From sequence record NC_047776.2: 64,000 nt of DNA, one strand, 5' to 3'. Shown here piece by piece: positions 43,123 through 58,356 of the stretch; the first letter of the stretch is position 1; each line of letters opens with the position of its first letter. The position numbers were made by a program, and so were the translations under genes. This DNA is from Escherichia phage ESCO5. Under the pieces are notes generated by a model. It was not told the DNA's origin. It searched no databases and saw only the letters and a list, made by a program, of their open reading frames with translations.

Positions 43123-43401
43123 TTAAAATGGTTCGTTAGTCTCCATCATATATTCTGCTTCTAGTTCTTCCATGTGCTTTCTAAATTGGAAAGCAATTTC
43201 TGCTACAGTTACATTTAAATCTTTTTCAAAAACTTCTGTAGATCCTTCATAAAAACGAATACCGTCAATTAAAAGCCCTCCGTGGTAATCCCAATCGCTT
43301 TCACGAGAAAGTGGATTAGGTTCTTCATAATAGTAATCCACCTCCACAACCAAGGCTTTCCCGTTACGAGTGGTGTATTCAAAATCAAAAGTGTTAATCA
43401 T
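43123..43401 (-). CDS. hypothetical protein
   Basis: 92 aa ORF. Confidence 0.5.
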   Translation of the reverse strand: MINTFDFEYTTRNGKALVVEVDYYYEEPNPLSRESDWDYHGGLLIDGIRFYEGSTEVFEKDLNVTVAEIAFQFRKHMEELEAEYMMETNEPF

Positions 43402-44345
43402 TATAGCTCCTCAAATAAAAGTCTACGACGCTCATTCAACACATCAATGTGATAATGAGTCCTGACATACTTAGCTAATGCTAATCCTTTCTCCATGCAA
43501 ACATCGGGAGCACTTAATAAGTATTCCGTAATATCTTTCCACTCGGAAGGTGTTTCAGCAAAGAATAACAAATCTTTAAACTCTTGTGTATGATAATTCT
43601 CACGAGGAGAGCAGATTAAAGGTAAACCCTTAGCACCTGCCTCAAGAATTTTAAGATTGCTTTTTGCATTATTAAACACGTTATCGATCAATGGTGCAAG
43701 ACTGATTTGATGACCATCGTAAGATTCCATGTAGTAGGCATATGGTCTTACACCTTCATAAACACAAGTTGGTGCTACATTTTCCCTGATTAAAGACCAT
43801 TCACGACTACTTAAAACTTCAGAATCCCTACGAAAACCACATATTGTAAGATCTTTACCAAAATCGGGCAAGATAGCCAAATCTTGTTTATGTGTTTCAC
43901 TTCCAGCCCAGACTAATGGAGTTTTGGAGTAGCGATCACGGGTCAACACAAATTGACCTTCATCGTAAGGAAGTCCATTAGGGATTATGTGCACATTATC
44001 ATTGTATTGTGAAAGTTCAACTTGCAAGGCAGGTGTCGTAGTTGTAACAAGATCACTGTGCTCTAAAAACCATTTTAAATGTTCACGAATACCTGATTCA
44101 AAAATACCTTCTAACATGTGTCCTTTTGGAATAACTAAAGAGTCATCCAAATCCATAACCATTTTAAAGCCCAGGTTTTTAAGGGCTAAAAAGCCCTCTT
44201 TACCTTTTGTTGGCACTCCGTTAAAAACGAAAACGTTGTGTTTAGGTTGTGAAGAGAACTGCCTTGAGTAAGGCAGCACTACCCTATGGAAATCGCAGAC
44301 ACTATAATTGATTCCGTTACGATTGTCAAGAATTATTTGTCCCAT
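43401..44345 (-). CDS. putative GT-B fold glycosyltransferase (paralog 1)
   Basis: 314 aa; C-terminal NAKSNLKILEAGAKGLPLICS resembles GT-B donor-binding motif; paralogous to adjacent gene. Confidence 0.5.
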   Translation of the reverse strand: MGQIILDNRNGINYSVCDFHRVVLPYSRQFSSQPKHNVFVFNGVPTKGKEGFLALKNLGFKMVMDLDDSLVIPKGHMLEGIFESGIREHLKWFLEHSDLVTTTTPALQVELSQYNDNVHIIPNGLPYDEGQFVLTRDRYSKTPLVWAGSETHKQDLAILPDFGKDLTICGFRRDSEVLSSREWSLIRENVAPTCVYEGVRPYAYYMESYDGHQISLAPLIDNVFNNAKSNLKILEAGAKGLPLICSPRENYHTQEFKDLLFFAETPSEWKDITEYLLSAPDVCMEKGLALAKYVRTHYHIDVLNERRRLLFEEL

Positions 44346-44352
44346 ACTTCAC

Positions 44353-45300
44353 CTACAAACTTTCAATAACCTGGCGTCGCAATTCGTTTGCATCTGCCAG
44401 ATTATAATGTGTTCGAACATGTTCCGCTAAGAACAAGCCGCGATCTTCCCGATAGTTCGGATTGCGAAGAAGCTTAACAATTTCGTAATGCCATTCAGCT
44501 TTATTCTCTGCGTAAGCAACAGCGCGAGCATCTACAGGGTTAAAATAAGGTAATACCTTAGAACAAACAATCGGAATACCTTTTGCCCCAGCTTCAAGGA
44601 TTTTGAGATTACTTTTACAATTATTAAAATCATTGTCTACCAAAGGAGCTATAGCAATAGCATGACTTTCGTAAACACTCATGTAATTATCTAAATCTTT
44701 TACAGCAGCTTTATATTTGGCGTTTGGTAAATTTCTACGGATCTTAATCCACTCTTGCCCTGTGATACTCTGCGATGCTTCATATCCTGCAATAGTAAGA
44801 AGTTCATCATCGAAAGTATTAGAGACTAGTCGTAAATCGGGTTCGTGACTAGCACCGCCAGCCCATACAACAGGGGTACCGGATGAACGATCATTTGACA
44901 AAGTGAATTGTCCGCTATCAAAAGGAAGTGCATTTCGGATCACAACAACATTCCTATTTAAGTGACGGATCTTATATGCCAAATATTCCGTAGTCACAAT
45001 GACCACATCGGCAAGCTTAACCATAGCTACAATAGCATGAGTGTTTGACTCATATAAACTTGCTAAATAATGTTCTGGATTAAGTTGGTAGAAATCATCT
45101 AAATCTACAACAATCTTAACACCTTGACGTTTCAGTGACAGAACATATTCTGCCCCTTTAGAATGAATACGGTTAAACACGACAACATCTTTCTTAGGCT
45201 GAAAATTATTGTTGTTAAATGGTATAACAATACGATGATAATCACAACCACTGTGAGGTTTTGCATCAATTTTCAGTTTAGTCCATTTTTTATTTGACAT
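44353..45300 (-). CDS. putative GT-B fold glycosyltransferase (paralog 2)
   Basis: Start moved to ATG with GAGGAGG RBS, giving 315 aa, matching paralog length; shares CDYHRIVIPF / CDFHRVVLPY and KSNLKILEAGAKGIPIVCS motifs. Confidence 0.5.
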   Translation of the reverse strand: MSNKKWTKLKIDAKPHSGCDYHRIVIPFNNNNFQPKKDVVVFNRIHSKGAEYVLSLKRQGVKIVVDLDDFYQLNPEHYLASLYESNTHAIVAMVKLADVVIVTTEYLAYKIRHLNRNVVVIRNALPFDSGQFTLSNDRSSGTPVVWAGGASHEPDLRLVSNTFDDELLTIAGYEASQSITGQEWIKIRRNLPNAKYKAAVKDLDNYMSVYESHAIAIAPLVDNDFNNCKSNLKILEAGAKGIPIVCSKVLPYFNPVDARAVAYAENKAEWHYEIVKLLRNPNYREDRGLFLAEHVRTHYNLADANELRRQVIESL

Positions 45301-45973
45301 GTGCCAGTGCCTCCTCATAAGAAATTCGGATTTTCCCATTTTTAATATCTTCTAAAGACGCTTTATATTCTTCCCAGTTAATGCCAATAGCAACTTCTTT
45401 CTCTTCTTTTGTCAGATTAGCAAAAGGCATAGGATTGTTTCCAAAAACATCGTCTGGGTGGATATAAGCCATGATACGAAGTGGACAAGGTATTGCCTGA
45501 ATGCCCTGATTCAAACCAGCAGCTTTCAAACGGTGTACCCATTCAGCATCTTCAAAACCATAGCCGTGAGTGTAAGGGCGGAAATAACCCATCTTCTCAA
45601 CAACGGCACGAGAATACATTGCAAATTGACACATTGCAAGTTCCCAGAGAATAACTTCTCCTTTACTCCCAACAACTTTATCTTTGAAATACTCCGGCAT
45701 ACCAAAGAAATCCCATCCTCCAGAGACAGCTTGATCTACAAAATATGTTTCCCATCCCTCCATGATTGGGTAGCAATCGTCGTCAAAAATAAACCAATAA
45801 TCATAACCTTCTTCATAAAACTGGTGCATAAGTTCATTCCTGGCGTAAGCTACACCTTTACGATCTGGATCGTTGAATACTCGAAAATCTGCATGTGGAT
45901 CTGTTACAAGGTAGTCTTTAAGTGGACGGACACCTACAGTGATAACACCCACTCCGATTTTAATATTTTCCAT
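45290..45973 (-). CDS. putative GT-A fold glycosyltransferase
   Basis: 227 aa; DxD-type motif in WFIFDDDCYP and GYGFEDAEWVHRL motif typical of family-2-like transferases. Confidence 0.5.
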   Translation of the reverse strand: MENIKIGVGVITVGVRPLKDYLVTDPHADFRVFNDPDRKGVAYARNELMHQFYEEGYDYWFIFDDDCYPIMEGWETYFVDQAVSGGWDFFGMPEYFKDKVVGSKGEVILWELAMCQFAMYSRAVVEKMGYFRPYTHGYGFEDAEWVHRLKAAGLNQGIQAIPCPLRIMAYIHPDDVFGNNPMPFANLTKEEKEVAIGINWEEYKASLEDIKNGKIRISYEEALAHVK

Positions 45974-47246: not shown

Positions 47247-47768
47247 TTAACTCCCCTTTGGTAGATAGAAACCATGCACTTTATCTCGATAAACAAGACG
47301 CATATCACGCTCCCAGTGTGTCCTTATATTCCGTTTCTTGAAGTATAGAGCACCTTTAGTAACATCTAAAACAGACCGCAATTCAGGAAAATGTTTCTCT
47401 AAATAAAGTAAACGCTCCGCTATTGCTTTTGCTTCCTGCCATTTATCTTTCTCTGTCACGTTAAAAGTTTTCGCATATGAGAATTGCCCTTTCTGGAACA
47501 AGACTCCCTTGACTGTGTTAGGGAAGTAGGCATCATTTCTTCTGTTGATTACCACATTCCCAACGGCATTCATTCCTTTTTTACCCAGACCGCGACCTTC
47601 TGCGTAAATTGCACAAGCTAATAGAATTTTATCATTATATTGCTTTGTACATTTGTGAACTACTTTAGCGGTTTTTACGTTTGCAGCTTCGGCTTTCGCC
47701 ACAACAGGTGTAAATGTAAAAGCAGTTAAGGATAGTAACGCAACTGTTACAAAGTTTTTTATCAGCAA
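47247..47768 (-). CDS. secreted cell-wall hydrolase (SleB/CwlJ-like)
   Basis: 173 aa; TTG start with AGGAGG RBS; N-terminal signal peptide ending VVAKAEA; core ILLACAIYAEGRG...AVGNVVINRR...FPNTVKGVLFQKGQFS matches SleB-type hydrolase family. Confidence 0.75.
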   Translation of the reverse strand: MLIKNFVTVALLSLTAFTFTPVVAKAEAANVKTAKVVHKCTKQYNDKILLACAIYAEGRGLGKKGMNAVGNVVINRRNDAYFPNTVKGVLFQKGQFSYAKTFNVTEKDKWQEAKAIAERLLYLEKHFPELRSVLDVTKGALYFKKRNIRTHWERDMRLVYRDKVHGFYLPKGS

Positions 47769-47829: not shown

Positions 47830-47849
47830 GAGGGGGATTTCTCCCCCTC
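47830..47849 (-). terminator. stem-loop / terminator after TerD gene
   Basis: GAGGGGGA-gaaa-UCCCCCUC on minus strand followed by UUGCAAU. Confidence 0.5.
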
Positions 47850-47864
47850 AAAATCATTTGTTAA

Positions 47865-48467
47865 TTATGGACATTCATACCATTCTTTTTTACCACCGAA
47901 GGCCATTACCACATCGCAAATATCCAGACCAGCTTTACCTACACCATATGCTTTCAGCTTCCATTCTCCATCTTCACGAACCAGGGAAGCCACGTGGCAG
48001 ATTGTGTTGCCAGCTACTTCAGGAGCCAGGAAGTCAAAATCCAGAATTTCCACATTACGCTCGGAGTCGAAGATTTTAAGCATACCTTCAGAAGCATGAC
48101 CAAAACGTTTCAGACCTGTATCATCATCAATAGTCAGAACAAAGGCAATCTCTTGTGCATCAGGAGAGATTTTAGCCAGAGTAATATCAATCTGCTCCAT
48201 GCTGCCAGTTCCATCACGAACATCGTCACCAGCAAAGGTAGAACGTTCAGGATCAAACTTATTAGCATAGCAAACCAGATGACGTGCAGACAGCATTTCA
48301 GGATTGCCAGCGGCATTGTGACGACAAACCAGTGCACTTACATCCAGATCCAGTTTAGAATCAGATTTCCAAGAGAACTCCAGGCGTAGTTCTTTCAGAG
48401 CCGGAGCAACTTTCTTCAGGGAAATTTTTTCGCTAGAGCCTTTTTTCAGGGAAATTTTATCAGTCAT
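47865..48467 (-). CDS. terD: TerD-domain protein
   Basis: 200 aa; aligns along its length to E. coli TerD: ISLKKG..ISLKK start, LDLDVSALV, GDDVRDGTG, IAFVLTIDD, GEWKLKAYGVGKAGL. Confidence 0.9.
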   Translation of the reverse strand: MTDKISLKKGSSEKISLKKVAPALKELRLEFSWKSDSKLDLDVSALVCRHNAAGNPEMLSARHLVCYANKFDPERSTFAGDDVRDGTGSMEQIDITLAKISPDAQEIAFVLTIDDDTGLKRFGHASEGMLKIFDSERNVEILDFDFLAPEVAGNTICHVASLVREDGEWKLKAYGVGKAGLDICDVVMAFGGKKEWYECP

Positions 48468-48482: not shown

Positions 48483-48752
48483 TTATTTAAGTGTAATACC
48501 AGTTACAGTCAATTCTACTTCCAAAAGCTTAGATGTGTTTTGGATTGATACTAATTGTGCATGATGGTTTAGTTCTACAGCAGAATAATCATTTTCCCCA
48601 TCATCTACTTTTAAATAAACAATGATTTCACTAAGGTCTAAACCATTTTCGTCAAATGCATTTTCATAGACGAAAGTATCTCCTACATCCAAATCTTTAA
48701 TGGTAAGGCATCGTTTATTTACTTTTTGCTCATCAATTTCGAAGTTTAACAC
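48483..48752 (-). CDS. hypothetical small protein (DLDVGDTF family, paralog B)
   Basis: 89 aa; shares IKDLDVGDTFVYENAFDENGLD...VTGITLK with paralog A. Confidence 0.55.
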   Translation of the reverse strand: MLNFEIDEQKVNKRCLTIKDLDVGDTFVYENAFDENGLDLSEIIVYLKVDDGENDYSAVELNHHAQLVSIQNTSKLLEVELTVTGITLK

Positions 48753-48981
48753 TTCTTCCTCCTAATATTATCTCCGGTTTATATATACGAAGAATTATAG
48801 CATTTTCATTTTCTTTGTCAACCCATTCTTCATAATCAGGCCATACATGAATCTCTACTCTACTTACAATATCTTCCATTCGCACAGTCCCAATGAAATA
48901 CTCTTTGAGACTGCACATAATGAAAGCTTCTCTCTCGCGCCAATAATTTTCTATGACTTGAGAGGCAAGCTCGTCGATCAT
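48733..48981 (-). CDS. hypothetical protein
   Basis: 82 aa ORF between vWA gene and paralog B. Confidence 0.45.
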   Translation of the reverse strand: MIDELASQVIENYWREREAFIMCSLKEYFIGTVRMEDIVSRVEIHVWPDYEEWVDKENENAIILRIYKPEIILGGRSVKLRN

Positions 48982-49772
48982 TTTTTAGCACCTACTTTAA
49001 CAACCCACTCTCCGAACTCTTCAGATAAGAGTTTGTCATAAAGCTCTGAATCTGTCAAGTCTAAATCTTTAATGCCAATAAAACCAACATTATCATAAGC
49101 ATTTGCCAGTTCTTTCAGGAAGCCAAACTTCTCATTACCAACGCCAACCATGAACCAATAAATAGGTTTATTCTTATTCTCTTCAATAAGACGACGAACA
49201 GCACTAGGATCACCATTCTCACCATCCGTCTGGAAGAATACAACACCAGGGGTAACGTCAGCACCTGGTTCAGACACAGCTACAACCTTTTCACGCTCTA
49301 CAGATACTGTTTCAGTTTTACCAAGCAGACGATTAAAGAAGCCTTTCTTTGGAGCCTCTTCTTGTACCACTTGTTTAGTGGTAATATATTTGGTAACAGT
49401 GCCAAAATACTCATCGTAGATATCTGCCATTACAGGGGCGTAATTTGTTCCACCTCCGATACGAACATTACGCATACATTTACCAACATAGTCATCGTAA
49501 ACGTCTGCTGTTGCTGGAGTAAGCTCTTGGGAACTCGTATTGAAGGCCCACATATCAATTTGTTGATTATCGTCGAACAGCATACCAAAAGGAAGCAGTT
49601 TACCTACAAAATCACTCACTACCCCACTAGAATATAGACCATGCATACTACCAGAAATATCTAGAGCACATGCTACACGAAGAACAATCTTACCTTCATT
49701 CAGGTTCTTATTCTTTTTCAGAGAGAAAGCAAGGTTTTCTTGACGTTTTTTCAGGCTGATTTTATCGGACAT
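48978..49772 (-). CDS. vWA-domain protein (TerY-like)
   Basis: 264 aa; MIDAS motif in VLRVACALDISGSMHG; GGGTNYAPVM; N-terminus MSDKISLKK resembles TerD start. Confidence 0.7.
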   Translation of the reverse strand: MSDKISLKKRQENLAFSLKKNKNLNEGKIVLRVACALDISGSMHGLYSSGVVSDFVGKLLPFGMLFDDNQQIDMWAFNTSSQELTPATADVYDDYVGKCMRNVRIGGGTNYAPVMADIYDEYFGTVTKYITTKQVVQEEAPKKGFFNRLLGKTETVSVEREKVVAVSEPGADVTPGVVFFQTDGENGDPSAVRRLIEENKNKPIYWFMVGVGNEKFGFLKELANAYDNVGFIGIKDLDLTDSELYDKLLSEEFGEWVVKVGAKK

Positions 49773-49773
49773 A

Positions 49774-50052
49774 TTATTTCTCCTTCTTAAGTGTAATGTT
49801 GGTAACTTCTAAATCTACTTCCACCATATTTGTATCTGGCGGGATGCAATGAGTATAGCCTCGTTGTGCTAGTGATCCATTAATACAAATCGCACTGTTT
49901 GTGGAATTTTTAATGAACACCAAGTTACGGTAGGTATCCAACCCTGCGTCTTCATAGGCATCATAATACATGAATGTGTCCCCTACGTCAAGATCTTCGA
50001 AAGCAATAGGTAAATCCTGACCTTTTTCTTCTTGAATATTGAATCTAAACAC
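49774..50052 (-). CDS. hypothetical small protein (DLDVGDTF family, paralog A)
   Basis: Start moved to GTG behind GAGGAGG RBS, giving 92 aa; FEDLDVGDTFMYYDAYEDAGLD...VTNITLKKEK. Confidence 0.5.
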   Translation of the reverse strand: MFRFNIQEEKGQDLPIAFEDLDVGDTFMYYDAYEDAGLDTYRNLVFIKNSTNSAICINGSLAQRGYTHCIPPDTNMVEVDLEVTNITLKKEK

Positions 50053-50608
50053 GCATACCTCCTCTACCAATTTTGAAGCCCAAATCGTAAGCTTCCTTAG
50101 TAATCTTTTGTAACTCACTTATAGGAAGTGTTACAAGAGGATCATCTTCTTCAATTTCCATCTTGTCATCTTCTGTTTCAATGAGAGTATTATGCACTTT
50201 GTGATAAGGGTTGTCAACACGTTTAAACTTATTCTTTTCTGTGCTGAAAAAACAATCTGGATCTTCTTCACCATCACCCCAACCTTGATTAGGATCTCCG
50301 TCAGATTGTTCTGTAGGGATTTCACCTGTAAAGTACTCTTCCAGCACCATAGCAATACCGTCCCTTGGATTTGAGGAATGCATTAAATCACAAACCTTAC
50401 CCCAATCCATAGCCCATTCGAACCGTTCACGAACGCCATTTTCATCCTCTTTTCCAGAGAAAACACAACCATAACTATCATAGTTGCCATACATCTCTTC
50501 AATAACAACACCGTCTTTCAAAAGAAAGAGGTAGCAAGGTGATCCGTCGAAAGAAGTAGAAAGGGCAGCTTTGCCCGATTCTTTGCACAAAAAACTAAAA
50601 CAACCCAT
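50045..50608 (-). CDS. hypothetical protein
   Basis: 187 aa acidic protein. Confidence 0.5.
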   Translation of the reverse strand: MGCFSFLCKESGKAALSTSFDGSPCYLFLLKDGVVIEEMYGNYDSYGCVFSGKEDENGVRERFEWAMDWGKVCDLMHSSNPRDGIAMVLEEYFTGEIPTEQSDGDPNQGWGDGEEDPDCFFSTEKNKFKRVDNPYHKVHNTLIETEDDKMEIEEDDPLVTLPISELQKITKEAYDLGFKIGRGGMRV

Positions 50609-50977: not shown

Positions 50978-51174
50978 TACTCCTCCTCCTCATTGAAGTC
51001 AATATCTGCAAGGAGTTCGAATTTACGGAAGTTACGACAACCTTCATAAATATAACAATCACGACAAACTGCTAGAACACTTGGGGGATATATGCCTCCC
51101 ATCGGTGCGAATCGTTTTTCGTCATCATAACGGACACCAATGTCTTCATCAATTATATAGATACGGATTCTCAT
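50977..51174 (-). CDS. hypothetical small protein
   Basis: 65 aa with Cys pairs. Confidence 0.45.
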   Translation of the reverse strand: MRIRIYIIDEDIGVRYDDEKRFAPMGGIYPPSVLAVCRDCYIYEGCRNFRKFELLADIDFNEEEE

Positions 51175-52283
51175 TTACCAAGCCCTCGTTTCACAGCAGC
51201 TACCATCCCGTCTTCCAGAGATTGAACTTCATTAATATAATCAACACGAGCAGCACGGGCTTCCGTATTGATGCGGTTAGTTTCTTCCAACATCTTAACC
51301 AAGTTTTCCTGATCGTGACGCAGAGTTTCAATATCCAACACTTGACGGTTAGCCAGTGCTGCTGCTTCGATCTGATTCTGTGTGGCAAGATCGCTACCTA
51401 GTTTAATTGCCAGGTTAAATTCATCAAGAACGTTATTCTGCGTCTCTGCTGCTTTCATTTGACGTAAGCTCTCGATATACATTGAGAAGTTAGCAGAGTA
51501 AGCAGGAATAACATTATTTACTATGTTACGCGCAGATCGCATTAAGCTTGCAGAAACTTTTTGCATACCTTGTACACGCGGTCCCATTTGGACACACAGT
51601 AGGCGCAACGCCTTTAAATCTGCAATACGAATCTCCAGGAGATCCAAAGTATCTCGGATCACTTGTCGCTGTTCTACGGCATCTTCTGGAAGAGCAGCCA
51701 AAGCTTGTTCTTCTTTTTCATAGGTTGCTGTTAGAAGCTGCATATCTCGGTTCAAACTTGCAGCATATTGTCCAATAGCTTGGTGTAGCTTTTCAAGATA
51801 TACCAAGGAATCTTCTTCTTTGCGAATATCCATTTGAAGGTTCTTTACCAACTCTTCAATACGGTTATTAACATTATCAAACTCCCCAAACAGGTCTTCT
51901 TTCATACCCATAACTTTTTTAATGAGTTTAGTAATACCCTTGCTTTGTTTAATAGAGTTTGGATCAAGTTGTTTTGCCTGTTTAATCAAGGCTGTGAGTC
52001 GTTCACTCATCTGATCGCCTTGATTACTACGTTGATGTTTTAACACCTCGGCATTCAAGGAACGCAAGGTTGTTCCTGCCTCTGCCCCAATCTCTTCGAT
52101 CTCTTGTCGGGTCATAGAAGGTAAAACTGGAACTTCTTGCGGTGCTGCTGGTGCATAAACAGGACTGGCATCTAACACACTTGGAGCAAATACAGATTTA
52201 CTTGCATCTGTTGTTGCAGCGAATACACTCATTTCAGACTTCTTCTGACCACCAGTAGCTGCTTTTAAAAATGGACTTGTCAT
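51171..52283 (-). CDS. TelA-like (toxic anion resistance family) protein, candidate
   Basis: 370 aa helical/coiled-coil protein; assignment rests on size, composition and linkage to TerD/TerC; not motif-verified. Confidence 0.4.
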   Translation of the reverse strand: MTSPFLKAATGGQKKSEMSVFAATTDASKSVFAPSVLDASPVYAPAAPQEVPVLPSMTRQEIEEIGAEAGTTLRSLNAEVLKHQRSNQGDQMSERLTALIKQAKQLDPNSIKQSKGITKLIKKVMGMKEDLFGEFDNVNNRIEELVKNLQMDIRKEEDSLVYLEKLHQAIGQYAASLNRDMQLLTATYEKEEQALAALPEDAVEQRQVIRDTLDLLEIRIADLKALRLLCVQMGPRVQGMQKVSASLMRSARNIVNNVIPAYSANFSMYIESLRQMKAAETQNNVLDEFNLAIKLGSDLATQNQIEAAALANRQVLDIETLRHDQENLVKMLEETNRINTEARAARVDYINEVQSLEDGMVAAVKRGLGK

Positions 52284-52870
52284 TCTTCATTCTCCTCTTC
52301 TGCATCTCTTATATATGGTGAAACACCGTACTCTTTAGCTACTTTAACCCAATCATCCCATTTATACAACCATAATTTTCCTTCAGTTCCTTCTTTATCT
52401 GATTTCAACCACATGTTAGGTTGCTTGCCTGGGTACATGCGATTAGGTTTACGATTATAACCTCTAACACATCTTGTCGCAAACCTATCTACCAGAACAA
52501 GAACATATTTATATTCGTGGTTCAACGGCTCTTTGGAAGTGGCTTTAGGATTAGCTCCTAATTCTGCTGCCAGTTTTTGCCAATGAGCACCGTGTCTACT
52601 AAACTTACCCATACAACCATCAATAGCATGAGCAATTTCGTGCTTCATTGTATCCACGATCATATCTCTTGTAGAGTTCTTATGCAAGTGCCAATTTACA
52701 ACAACAATTTTATCTCGGTAGTTGCACCAACCGAAAGAGTTATTAACTTTGTTTCTAACACAAGCTTTATATCCTGCTTCACGTAACATGTTGTAGTAAA
52801 CAGGAAAATCTTCTTTTATTTCCTGCATCACTTCCCACCACAAGAGTTGCAAGTCTCTCTCGGTATGCAT
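52280..52870 (-). CDS. SprT-like zinc metallopeptidase
   Basis: 196 aa; HEIAHAIDG (HExxH) followed by RHGAHWQKLAAELG, as in SprT/WLM family. Confidence 0.55.
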   Translation of the reverse strand: MHTERDLQLLWWEVMQEIKEDFPVYYNMLREAGYKACVRNKVNNSFGWCNYRDKIVVVNWHLHKNSTRDMIVDTMKHEIAHAIDGCMGKFSRHGAHWQKLAAELGANPKATSKEPLNHEYKYVLVLVDRFATRCVRGYNRKPNRMYPGKQPNMWLKSDKEGTEGKLWLYKWDDWVKVAKEYGVSPYIRDAEEENEE

Positions 52871-54495: not shown

Positions 54496-55470
54496 TTAAA
54501 CAGCAGCTTCTTCTTTTTCAGGGAAGATAAAGCTTGCAATAACACCAAGAGATAATGTGCCTAGAACAATCATCAGACTTACGTTAGGGGAAATATCATG
54601 CGGGAGGAATGACCACTTGGCATGAAGTGTTTCACCGAACGGGTGATACATAAGTTTAGCACCAACAAACACCAGAACCACAGCAACAGCTTTCTCTAAG
54701 TGAACCAGATATTTCACAGCTACACTTAACACAAAGAAAAGTGCACGTAAACCAAGAACAGCCATCAGCATTGCAGAATAAACTAGCAGAGGTTCTTGTG
54801 TCACACCGATTACAGCCGGAACTGAATCAAAAGAGAAGACAATATCTGTAAGCTCAATAACAAACACACAAAGAAGAGCAGGAGTTGCATATTTAATACC
54901 ATTCTTAATGGTAATGAACTTTTCACCATCTAGTGCATTGTGCACAGGCAGAACTTTACCTACTAAACGAACAGCCCAATGCTTAGAGTAATCAATATCC
55001 TCTTCTTCGTCACCACCTTTGATGATAGCCACGGCAGACCAAGCTACAATCAAACCGAACAACACTTGGACCGACCAATGAAGGTTAAACAAAGCGGTCC
55101 CTGCTGCAACAAAAATACCTCGGAAGACAATGGCTCCTGCAATCCCCCAAAGTAAAATCTTATGTTGAAGATGTGTGCTCTTAATTCCAAAGCTTGCAAA
55201 AATTGCCATGAATACCATCAGGTTATCTACAGAAAGACTCTTTTCCAACACATAGCCACTTAGGAAAAGCGCGGCAAACTCTTTACCATGTTCTACCCAA
55301 ATGAATGCGTAATATCCTAAAGCTAAAGCAATCCAAAAAACAGACCAAAGCAAAGCAGATTTAATTCCAATTTCTTTATTCTCTTTATGACCAAAGAAAT
55401 CGATACCAATAGACAATGCCAAAATACCAACTAAAACAACTACATCAATAATTGGGAAACCGAGTTGCAT
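54496..55470 (-). CDS. terC: TerC-family integral membrane protein
   Basis: 324 aa polytopic membrane protein; LEKSLSVDNLMVF and ELTDIVFSFDSVPAVIGVT duplicated TerC signature. Confidence 0.8.
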   Translation of the reverse strand: MQLGFPIIDVVVLVGILALSIGIDFFGHKENKEIGIKSALLWSVFWIALALGYYAFIWVEHGKEFAALFLSGYVLEKSLSVDNLMVFMAIFASFGIKSTHLQHKILLWGIAGAIVFRGIFVAAGTALFNLHWSVQVLFGLIVAWSAVAIIKGGDEEEDIDYSKHWAVRLVGKVLPVHNALDGEKFITIKNGIKYATPALLCVFVIELTDIVFSFDSVPAVIGVTQEPLLVYSAMLMAVLGLRALFFVLSVAVKYLVHLEKAVAVVLVFVGAKLMYHPFGETLHAKWSFLPHDISPNVSLMIVLGTLSLGVIASFIFPEKEEAAV

Positions 55471-55785: not shown

Positions 55786-56259
55786 TTAAAGTTTATAAAT
55801 AGTCACATCGTGACCTGTTTTTACTAAAGTTTCTTCAATCATCACTTGGATGATAGCCCAATTACCTCCAGCATATCCAGCGCCAATCATAGGTAAGCCG
55901 ATCTTACATTTTTGGTCACGGAGAAGCACATCATTAGCCATAGCTATTAGTGCATCGTAAAGTGCATCATAGTCCAACTGACGACCTTTAGCATTGTATC
56001 CGTAACGGTATTGCCCGTATAGATTATATACCAAAGGGTCTGATTGTTCGTCTGGCACCCCTAAACTAAAAGAACCTAACTTACTTTGATCACCAGCCAT
56101 TGTGTCTAAATCTGCCGCATATGCATAAGGGAATGCTCGTTTAATTTGCGGAGCAATTCCTGCCCCCATATTACACATACAATTGCAACAATGAGCAATA
56201 ACAGTTACTTCACCTGCTTTAGCGGCATCAATAAGATTACCTGTTTTCATTTTAAGCAT
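55786..56259 (-). CDS. macro-domain protein (TARG1/DarG-type)
   Basis: Start moved to ATG behind AAGGAG RBS (158 aa); VIAHCCNCMCNMGAGIAPQI matches the AHCxxxxCxMGAGIA motif of TARG1-like macrodomains; IGLPMIGAGYAGG second motif. Confidence 0.65.
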   Translation of the reverse strand: MLKMKTGNLIDAAKAGEVTVIAHCCNCMCNMGAGIAPQIKRAFPYAYAADLDTMAGDQSKLGSFSLGVPDEQSDPLVYNLYGQYRYGYNAKGRQLDYDALYDALIAMANDVLLRDQKCKIGLPMIGAGYAGGNWAIIQVMIEETLVKTGHDVTIYKL

Positions 56260-56272
56260 TTTTAGCTCCTTA

Positions 56273-57100
56273 TTACAGAATGTGTTGTTTTGTGTAACGA
56301 TCCAAGAATTCAAAGTTTTCAGCATACTTTGAAATTCGGTTGTAACCTTCTCCCAAACATCCGAAGAAAAGTTGCTCTACATAGTAGTGTGGCAATTGGC
56401 TAAGAATGATTTTGAAGTCTTCGTGATTTTGGCCCATAAGATACTTAATAGGACGAACAAGACACTGTGCATCACGTTCTTCATTAATCATTTTAACAAA
56501 CGCTTCTGGTGTATTGATATAGTTAAAATTCAGTTTAGCTTCAGTATCTGCTTGATTACCTTCATATTTTGCAAAATACAAGAAGTAAACATCATTTTTA
56601 ACTTGATTTTCATCAAGAATCTCAATCAGTTTGTCTTCATGAGTTCCGGTGATATTTACATCATCAATGAACACAAGCTTCTTATCACCCCAGAATTCTT
56701 TGTTGCAGTAGAATGTATCCCCATCAATAAGTTTCTTACGACTAGCTTTATCCAAGAAACCATAATCGTTGATATAGCTAACTTTACGATGAATAATATC
56801 CAGTTCTGCTGAACGACCTTGATCATATTGTGCTTGCAACATATTAAAGTAATTAATAAAATGATCTGTCATCATTGTTGCAGCATTGTGCACATGGTTA
56901 TAAGGAGAAGGGATGATAACAAATTGTTCCCCAATATGTTTCATTGCCACTTGAGCAAAAAACTGAAGTACCAATTCTTTACCCATACGACGCGCAGCTT
57001 GGTTACTACCAAATTTCAATTTTGAATAGTCTTTGATATCAAAAGTAGCAGTTTCCAGGTCATCAAATTTATTTGCAAAAATTTGAGTTTGATTACGCAT
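56273..57100 (-). CDS. phosphoribosyltransferase (type I PRTase fold)
   Basis: 275 aa; PRPP-binding motif KKLVFIDDVNITGTHE. Confidence 0.65.
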   Translation of the reverse strand: MRNQTQIFANKFDDLETATFDIKDYSKLKFGSNQAARRMGKELVLQFFAQVAMKHIGEQFVIIPSPYNHVHNAATMMTDHFINYFNMLQAQYDQGRSAELDIIHRKVSYINDYGFLDKASRKKLIDGDTFYCNKEFWGDKKLVFIDDVNITGTHEDKLIEILDENQVKNDVYFLYFAKYEGNQADTEAKLNFNYINTPEAFVKMINEERDAQCLVRPIKYLMGQNHEDFKIILSQLPHYYVEQLFFGCLGEGYNRISKYAENFEFLDRYTKQHIL

Positions 57101-57749
57101 TTACAATTTCTCCTCTTTTAAGTTTCTCTAGTAAGTCGTTAGGGTTCTTAATATGACAGAAGTTAATCCCTATGTCAACACATTTACCATCAAATTCTTC
57201 GCTGTCCCCAACATGTAAAATCTCTTCAGCCTTCAAAGGAATGCTTGAATATGTGGCGGTCCTAACAAAGAATCTAGGATCTGGTTTACATAACAGATGT
57301 TCGTCTGAAAAATGCATAAATTCAAAACAATTCCAACTGTCGAACATACAAGCACGACGCAAAATATCCCCAGATATAAAATTAGTATTGCTTTTAATAC
57401 TAAGATCATATTTACCAGACAAGTATAGCAAACAAACTGGCAAATCTAAAGCGATATGTGGAGGAAATTTAAGAAACCATTGCTCACAATCAAAACGCAT
57501 TTGTGCAGATTCTACAGGGGTTAAACCTATCTTTCTTCCCAACATATTCCATGCATATGCTACACCTTCTGCACACCCATTTAGTGCAGCATTATCCATA
57601 ATTTCTTTGGCATCTTTATATGCTTCTTTTGCCGCACGTTCAGACATTCTACCATATGTAGCAATAGTGTGCGTACGTGCATCTGCATAGTTTTGATTGG
57701 CAGAAATAAGAGTATTCCATACATCAAAAGAAATATGTTTTATTGTCAT
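57093..57749 (-). CDS. HAD-superfamily hydrolase
   Basis: Start moved to ATG just after upstream stop (218 aa); motif I ISFDVWNTL and motif IV VGDSEEFDGK. Confidence 0.5.
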   Translation of the reverse strand: MTIKHISFDVWNTLISANQNYADARTHTIATYGRMSERAAKEAYKDAKEIMDNAALNGCAEGVAYAWNMLGRKIGLTPVESAQMRFDCEQWFLKFPPHIALDLPVCLLYLSGKYDLSIKSNTNFISGDILRRACMFDSWNCFEFMHFSDEHLLCKPDPRFFVRTATYSSIPLKAEEILHVGDSEEFDGKCVDIGINFCHIKNPNDLLEKLKRGEIVNA

Positions 57750-57750
57750 A

Positions 57751-58356
57751 CTAGGCCCACCACGCATCAAGATTTAAGTTACTGTCTACCACAACTTGTT
57801 CTATGTGGTAGCCTTTTATCTGTATCCCACTGTTCAAGAGCATATCATATGCTTCATTGAAACGCAACTTATCTTCTGCGGAATATAAGCGAGCATTGTA
57901 AAATCGGTAATCAAGTTCTTCAGCATTAGAAGAAATACGGAAGAAGTTTGTTTCTACTTCAGGATCACTTGCTGAAGTTTTAATGTGAACTTCTCCGTAA
58001 TTTTCTTTGCTTAGATCCATGAAAAGAACACAGGCAACATGTTTAAACATTCGTTCCAGTTTGTAACGAACAACATTGAAACCTGCGTTCTCAAGTTTTT
58101 CTACACATTGCAACATTAACGTAGTGTCGAGATCGCTTTGATACTTTGTTAACATACGATCACGTTGAGACTTTGTATCCCGATGTAAATCAATTGTTGT
58201 GCATTTGGCACCAATGATCTTAGCTGCTTTCATCAACTCTTCAGAACTAACGTTAGATAAAGTAAGATGAAAATGGGCTTTCCACACTTTTTTAGCAGGG
58301 ACACCAAAAGATTTATCCCCACTATTCGGCATGTTGACTACTACACTATGTTGCAT
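57751..58356 (-). CDS. hypothetical protein (possible 2H-phosphoesterase-like)
   Basis: 201 aa; one HxTx motif (HFHLTL); second motif not clear. Confidence 0.4.
   Translation of the reverse strand: MQHSVVVNMPNSGDKSFGVPAKKVWKAHFHLTLSNVSSEELMKAAKIIGAKCTTIDLHRDTKSQRDRMLTKYQSDLDTTLMLQCVEKLENAGFNVVRYKLERMFKHVACVLFMDLSKENYGEVHIKTSASDPEVETNFFRISSNAEELDYRFYNARLYSAEDKLRFNEAYDMLLNSGIQIKGYHIEQVVVDSNLNLDAWWA

Follow-up and report, generated by a model that had tools for sequence, protein, structure and literature searches.

The locus around a vWA gene in Escherichia phage ESCO5 (NC_047776.2) raises two questions: how two small genes close to it, the products of which share a sequence core, are related to each other and to their neighbors, and why the vWA protein and a nearby TerD protein begin with almost the same peptide. 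Ter-type systems occur widely among bacteria, on plasmids and in phages, and their mechanism is poorly understood. To address these questions, a stretch of 64,000 nucleotides of the phage genome (hereafter, the window) was analyzed and compared with related loci, some of which are designated below by L numbers. The reading that we favor, and consider fairly probable as a whole, is that the region represents the core of a phage Ter-type module in which old SH3-like barrel paralogs are genomically locked to vWA and TerD, with the common N-terminal peptide being an inherited family signature.

Many E. coli myoviruses that belong to Phapecoctavirus (a phAPEC8-like genus of the Stephanstirmvirinae) are 98-99% identical to the 2.9-kb region that holds these genes, and vB_EcoM-Ro121c4YLVW comes closest (99.1%). 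From ~34 kb on, all genes of the window are located on the minus strand, where the 5'-to-3' order is paralog A (92 aa), vWA-TerF-like, an 82-aa gene, paralog B (89 aa) and TerD (Table 1); the ESCO13 record contains the same ORFs with the same starts. According to the definition that Anantharaman, Iyer and Aravind reportedly gave in 2012, a Ter-type system comprises TerD, TerC, TelA and/or a vWA protein co-located with PRTase and HAD genes. All of these components lie on a single strand from 47.8 to 57.8 kb, the HAD match being weak, and the region forms the core of a Ter-type module carried by a Phapecoctavirus, which includes PRTase, HAD-like, TerC, SprT-like, TelA, vWA-TerF-like and TerD genes. 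The PRTase_3 gene and the weak HAD-like and Macro-domain matches upstream of TerC (55786-57770, minus strand) resemble the nucleoside-metabolite branch of Ter systems. Elsewhere in the window, two adjacent minus-strand ORFs of 314 and 328 aa (43401-45339) have weak glycosyltransferase-like Pfam matches and appear to be mutual paralogs, and a 227-aa ORF (45290-45973, minus strand) weakly matches a TET-associated glycosyltransferase family.

Table 1. Features of the Ter-type region in the window, in the order of minus-strand transcription (positions are those of the whole window)
Feature	Position	Strand	Remarks
Weak HAD-like match	57093-57770	-	PF00702, E = 0.0014; adjoins PRTase_3
PRTase_3 (ComF-like phosphoribosyltransferase)	56273-57100	-	PF15610, 142 bits
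Weak Macro-domain match	55786-56325	-	
TerC-family membrane protein	54496-55470	-	PF03741, 138 bits
SprT-like	52280-52870	-	
TelA-family protein	51171-52283	-	PF05816, 115.7 bits
Three ORFs of ~60 aa each	between TelA and the 187-aa ORF	-	
187-aa ORF	50045-50608	-	
P(A), putative near-consensus sigma-70 promoter upstream of A	50189-50217	-	TTGACA-17-CATAAT, 11/12
Paralog A, 92 aa, GTG start	49774-50052	-	PHROG 11278; predicted SH3-like small beta-barrel
vWA-TerF-like protein, 264 aa	48978-49772	-	PF10138
vWA codons 1-20, conserved N-terminal extension	49713-49772	-	MSDKISLKKRQENLAFSLKK
82-aa ORF	48733-48981	-	PHROG 22387
P(B), putative perfect sigma-70 consensus promoter inside the 82-aa ORF	48794-48821	-	TTGACA-16-TATAAT, extended -10 TG
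Paralog B, 89 aa, GTG start	48483-48752	-	PHROG 11278; predicted SH3-like small beta-barrel
TerD codons 1-19, canonical start of the TerD domain	48411-48467	-	MTDKISLKKGSSEKISLKK
TerD-domain protein, 200 aa	47865-48467	-	PF02342
Cell-wall hydrolase	47247-47768	-	

The gene set of the window (TerD, vWA-TerF-like, TelA, TerC and PRTase) is already on record from virulent phages, phiKp34 among them, and from jumbo phages (PMC8386662, PMC7824862), and superinfection exclusion or stress tolerance has been proposed as the role of phage Ter genes (PMC7824862). Since Ter-type clusters in virulent phages have already been described, the present case is a variant of a known system. Like the known stress-response/defense clusters (terZABCDEF, telAB, PRTase/HAD), of which phages carry abbreviated forms, the window has TerD, vWA-TerF-like, TelA, TerC and PRTase_3 genes and a weak HAD-like match on one strand; unlike full Ter clusters, no TerB, TerZ or TerA was seen in it, and its Ter genes are interspersed with many small phage ORFs. 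The annotations of phage phi92 already name stress and tellurium-resistance proteins, and a literature search for Phapecoctavirus together with tellurium returned nothing.

The two proteins that give the module its core are readily assigned. The vWA protein matches PF10138 with 130.1 bits (gathering cut-off, 29.4) and has an intact MIDAS (D38-x-S40-x-S42, T109 and D183); across 22 vWA sequences, no variation is seen at D38, S42, T109 or D183, and conservation of S40 reaches at least 90%. Its AlphaFold2 model (pLDDT 90.1) has a vWA fold, with integrin I-domains and the copine BON1 among the best PDB matches found by Foldseek (E ~1e-6). Within this fold, a long beta-hairpin is predicted as an insertion at residues ~127-167 (strands 127-141 and 153-167); it varies in length among relatives and is absent in shorter (~233 aa) homologs. 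The TerD protein matches PF02342 with 98.9 bits (cut-off, 25.3), residues 5-179 corresponding to profile positions 3-177 of 187, and aligns from residue 5 to the solved TerD structures 2KXT (E = 1.5e-15) and 3IBZ (E = 2.9e-14). Of the acidic cluster of the Ca2+-binding loop (GDN.TGEGDGDDE in 2KXT), only a part is retained, as judged by alignment (AGDDVRDGTGSMEQ in the phage protein versus TGDNRTGEGDGDDES in 2KXT). With regard to phi92, gp171 was considered as a second TerD and rejected. The vWA-TerF-like protein gp173 of the same phage (L002:4272-5066) was named "Tellurium resistance protein TerD" by RAST in a published cocktail metagenome; this name is an annotation error, and it may have spread to other records.

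Two known architectures help to place this pair. TerF-type TerD-vWA fusions (PF02342 + PF10138) contain the same vWA-TerF-like domain and, in P0059-P0062, the same hydrophobic-x-L-x-K repeat just ahead of the MIDAS strand. However, the phage TerD and vWA genes are separate, with two small genes and a promoter between them, and the stand-alone phage vWA protein (264 aa) has a linker-like motif only, instead of the N-terminal TerD fusion that marks TerF proper. Because the two genes are separate, this motif lies at the very N-terminus of vWA. The second architecture is that of copines, in which C2 domains are followed by a copine-type vWA domain, as in plant BON1 (PDB 6KXK), which is among the best PDB matches of the vWA model; several vWA relatives also match Pfam Copine (PF07002). 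By analogy, a putatively Ca2+-binding beta-sandwich TerD combined with vWA seems to resemble the C2-plus-vWA arrangement of copines, although TerD is not a C2 domain and the phage proteins are separate polypeptides.

Concerning the small genes, the original prediction pointed to two proteins of about 89 and 92 aa with a common DLDVGDTF...GLD...VTxITLK core. The pairwise alignment that had been suggested as a check bears this out: BLASTP aligns A and B end to end without gaps (30 of 89 identities, 34%; E = 4e-14), with DLDVGDTF, GLD and VT(N/G)ITLK as matching blocks. In a six-frame translation of the 64-kb window, A and B are each other's sole significant match (3e-12; next best, 0.26-0.28), and no further copies of the small gene were found. 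The starts of both genes are backed by GGAGG-type ribosome-binding sites, by the ESCO13 annotation and by homologs that all open with M-[FL]-x-F; the start codon of B is GTG here and ATG in relatives. The two genes had been placed on either side of vWA, which is accurate for A, directly upstream with its stop codon 1 nt before the vWA start, but less so for B, which is split from vWA by the 82-aa ORF and ends 15 nt before the TerD start.

The same prediction spoke of a local duplication, and A and B are indeed true paralogs, but the event was ancient rather than recent. That the duplication is old can be read from two features of the sequences: synonymous sites differ, at five of eight codons even where the DLDVGDTF block is identical, and diverged relatives still carry both copies. 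These synonymous differences between A and B give no sign of a recent segmental duplication or gene conversion. The diverged Phapecoctavirus phiWec179 and a metagenomic relative (L007) share the order A, vWA, ~81-aa gene, B, TerD, and the relatives that retain both copies have diverged to ~50% amino-acid identity. In a neighbor-joining tree, A-type proteins, encoded upstream, group apart from B-type proteins, encoded in the middle, the clade of the latter being marked by an insertion, and phi92 (Justusliebigvirus) and Klebsiella phage 05F01 have the A-type copy only, with TerD directly after vWA. Pairwise dN/dS values, which are rough given saturated dS and were not returned for two comparisons, are ~0.17-0.39 for A and B versus 0.06-0.19 for TerD and vWA, indicating that A and B are real, fast-evolving genes under purifying selection.

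Both small proteins match the full-length profile of PHROG 11278 (A, E = 6.7e-51; B, E = 7e-45), a PHROG without assigned function, and neither they nor the 82-aa protein matched any Pfam or PADLOC model. A word-indexed profile search yielded 22 clusters, and an exhaustive HMM search of 1.84 billion protein representatives yielded 21 matches only, all 87-93 aa long except for four (two truncated fragments and two weak matches, E ~1e-4, in very large proteins). Judged by these searches, the A/B family is narrow and phage-only, all members being from one related group of ~120-155 kb phages. It appears to be undescribed as a small barrel family tied to vWA and TerD; no mention of a small SH3-like family was found in the published accounts that were consulted (including PMC7824862 and PMC8386662).

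The fold of the family was approached with the structure prediction that had been proposed earlier for a paralog. An AlphaFold2 model of A, based on a 21-sequence alignment (pLDDT 84.6), finds its best match in the viral structure library BFVD in the phAPEC8 ortholog of B (TM 0.81), and at the level of fold class the family is predicted to be an SH3-like small beta-barrel, a class that includes the ribosomal L2 C-terminal domain, EF-P domain I, KOW, Tudor and FeoA. The next structural matches, and the closest to A outside its own family, are A0A5B9NIS1 and A0A5B9NJT7 (E = 7e-4 and 1.5e-3), two uncharacterized proteins of 83-85 aa that are both from one jumbo phage, Erwinia phage vB_EamM_TropicalSun.

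The 82-aa ORF between vWA and B is present only in lineages carrying B, has a dN/dS of 0.2-0.4 and contains the putative promoter for B-TerD; it was also considered as a diverged member of the A/B family and rejected (hhalign probability 0.09%). This promoter, P(B), is the sole perfect TTGACA-N16-TATAAT in the 64-kb window (0.05 expected) and lies ~40 nt upstream of the B start. It is kept at the same place in ESCO13 (L001), phiWec179 (L003), L007 and L008, and counterparts of P(A) occur at the corresponding place in ESCO13, phi92 (L002) and phiWec179; the coding constraint that acts on the 82-aa ORF is a confounder of promoter conservation. In the proposed scheme, A and vWA (along with the 82-aa gene) would be transcribed from P(A), and B and TerD from P(B). 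Since a conserved promoter precedes each small gene, A and B each appear to head their own unit with the downstream partner, led by putative strong sigma-70-type promoters. At the other end of TerD, a G+C-rich hairpin without a T-run (GAGGGGG-AGAAAT-CCCCCTC; 47830-47849, minus strand) lies directly past the stop codon, and a promoter-like site (TTGCAA-17-TATACT, 47829-47801) comes right after it.

In eight distinct gene contexts, comprising 12 members, every member of the A/B family is located directly upstream of vWA, TerD or another member; for example, the order is vWA, member, TerD in L009, vWA, member, member, TerD in L012, and member, TerD in L011. From this gene order and the fold class, we infer that the small barrels may serve as adaptors or assembly partners of the protein whose gene comes next. 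The main rival to this reading, which we regard as rather unlikely, treats the small genes as rapidly evolving accessory genes ("morons") functionally unlinked to vWA and TerD, their adjacency reflecting inherited order or an insertion-tolerant slot. Because all members come from one related phage group, constant adjacency could indeed be inherited synteny instead of functional coupling, and the confinement of the family to a single phage lineage, together with evolutionary rates several-fold higher than those of TerD and vWA, is in line with such an explanation. In addition, two phages (L005 and L006) possess TelA, vWA and TerD with no detectable member of the small-barrel family, which indicates that the small proteins are dispensable for the vWA/TerD pair. 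The small genes adjoining vWA in these two phages were considered as distant A/B members and rejected, being instead homologous to each other. They form a second small acidic family unrelated to A/B (L005:3653-3985, 110 aa, versus L006:4744-5094, 116 aa; 27% identity, E = 5e-7) and take up the slot before vWA in one phage and the slot that separates vWA from TerD in the other. Such filling of the same two slots by an unrelated family is in line with accessory genes, but non-homologous replacement can also point to a functional niche. Moreover, a merely inherited order does not easily account for members that shift position (before vWA, between vWA and TerD, or in tandem) yet adjoin vWA or TerD in all eight distinct contexts, for the tight junctions of 1 nt (A-vWA) and 15 nt (B-TerD), or for the promoters conserved before each unit of small gene plus partner.

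As for the shared N-terminal peptide, TerD (MTDKISLKKGSSEKISLKK) and vWA (MSDKISLKKRQENLAFSLKK) do open almost identically, as originally predicted, with eight of nine residues identical at the start and 12 of 20 overall. The starts are well supported: each ATG is the earliest start codon of its ORF and is preceded by a good ribosome-binding site (GAGGAG or AAGGAG), so the shared peptide is translated. The claim that the codons are shared as well holds for 22 of the first 27 nucleotides, but not for the Ser codon (TCC versus AGC), and the similarity stops after codon 9, with differing upstream regions.

For two genes 1.3 kb apart on the same strand, identities of this order (22/27 nt, 8/9 residues) could suggest that a recent 5'-end duplication or gene conversion in this phage made the shared start, in keeping with the duplication or recombination of 5' ends that had originally been offered as one explanation. 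This account is largely refuted, and we assign it only a marginal probability. The Ser codons are separated by a two-step change, identity ends at codon 9 and the upstream sequences are unrelated, none of which points to a recent segmental duplication or gene conversion between TerD and vWA; the codon differences rule out a recent 5' duplication. Furthermore, the same peptide occurs in orthologs of both genes across phages (42-100% identity). In ortholog pairs from ten phage loci, M-x-x-K-[IVL]-[SAN]-L-x-K is kept in both genes down to 42-45% identity, and it is also present where the small proteins are absent, as vWA and TerD of L005 and L006 carry the same motif despite the missing barrels. 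Among 22 vWA-TerF-like proteins (down to 28% identity, one being from Neobacillus), L7 and K9 never vary, and L18 and K20 show at least 90% conservation. The TerD peptide falls within the Pfam domain (from residue 5) and aligns to VSLSKGG-NVSLSKTAP at the start of 2KXT and 3IBZ. In bacterial TerD-vWA fusions, the same units are internal, found in the interdomain linker 25-45 residues before the MIDAS (e.g., ISLSKQRLISLEKTAPPKLINLAKQVSTVLTK), and the linker of P0062 carries "KTAP", as found in TerD. Being family-wide in both proteins, the motif was inherited with each gene and not made by a local 5' duplication.

The A-rich codons themselves raise a further alternative, namely that the common start is a translation-level feature (weakly structured codons after ATG that favor initiation) and not a protein motif. 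Both genes open with GAT AAA AT. followed by CTG AAA AAA, as this would predict, but the residues are conserved with different codons, the same amino-acid motif lies 180-210 residues from the start in TerD-vWA fusions, and the TerD motif is part of a Pfam domain and of solved structures, which makes the alternative very improbable. Sequence conservation instead identifies the shared peptide, a twinned hydrophobic-S-L-x-K motif, as a signature of the family. By alignment to solved TerD structures, it makes up the first two strands of the TerD domain and opens the beta-sandwich, and in the vWA protein, alignments define it as a conserved pre-domain extension. The presence of a TerD-like twinned S-L-x-K segment in vWA-TerF-like proteins appears to be undescribed. 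Common descent of the two motifs is possible: in a profile-profile comparison of TerD with vWA, only the first ~22 columns were aligned with confidence (E = 3.6e-5, probability 71%). True homology is uncertain because vWA residues 7-20 are predicted by AlphaFold2 to form an alpha-helix, whereas the TerD motif opens a beta-sandwich. The peptide may also serve as a shared recognition motif, the other explanation that had originally been offered.

A more specific extension of the favored reading, which we consider doubtful, combines the two observations. The A and B barrels would be dedicated peptide-binding partners (chaperone, adaptor or regulator) of the downstream KISLKK…SLKK segment, A acting with vWA and B with TerD, and the vWA extension would be a vestige of the TerD N-terminal hairpin, left in place when a TerF-type fusion split. 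If so, the region would consist of two promoter-led "barrel plus KISLKK-protein" cassettes, and a vestigial hairpin in vWA could allow the same type of partner to dock on both proteins. In the broader mechanism proposed for the module, TerD and the copine-like vWA domain would function at the inner membrane of the infected cell together with TelA and TerC.

Overall, these results make a tidy comparative-genomics point and not a surprise. They bring a gain in annotation, as most phage records label these genes as hypothetical only. For Ter-type systems, a phage-specific family adjoining vWA and TerD may provide a handle on what TerD and the TerF-type vWA domain bind, and the conserved twinned S-L-x-K segment common to both proteins may likewise provide a handle on their binding partners.
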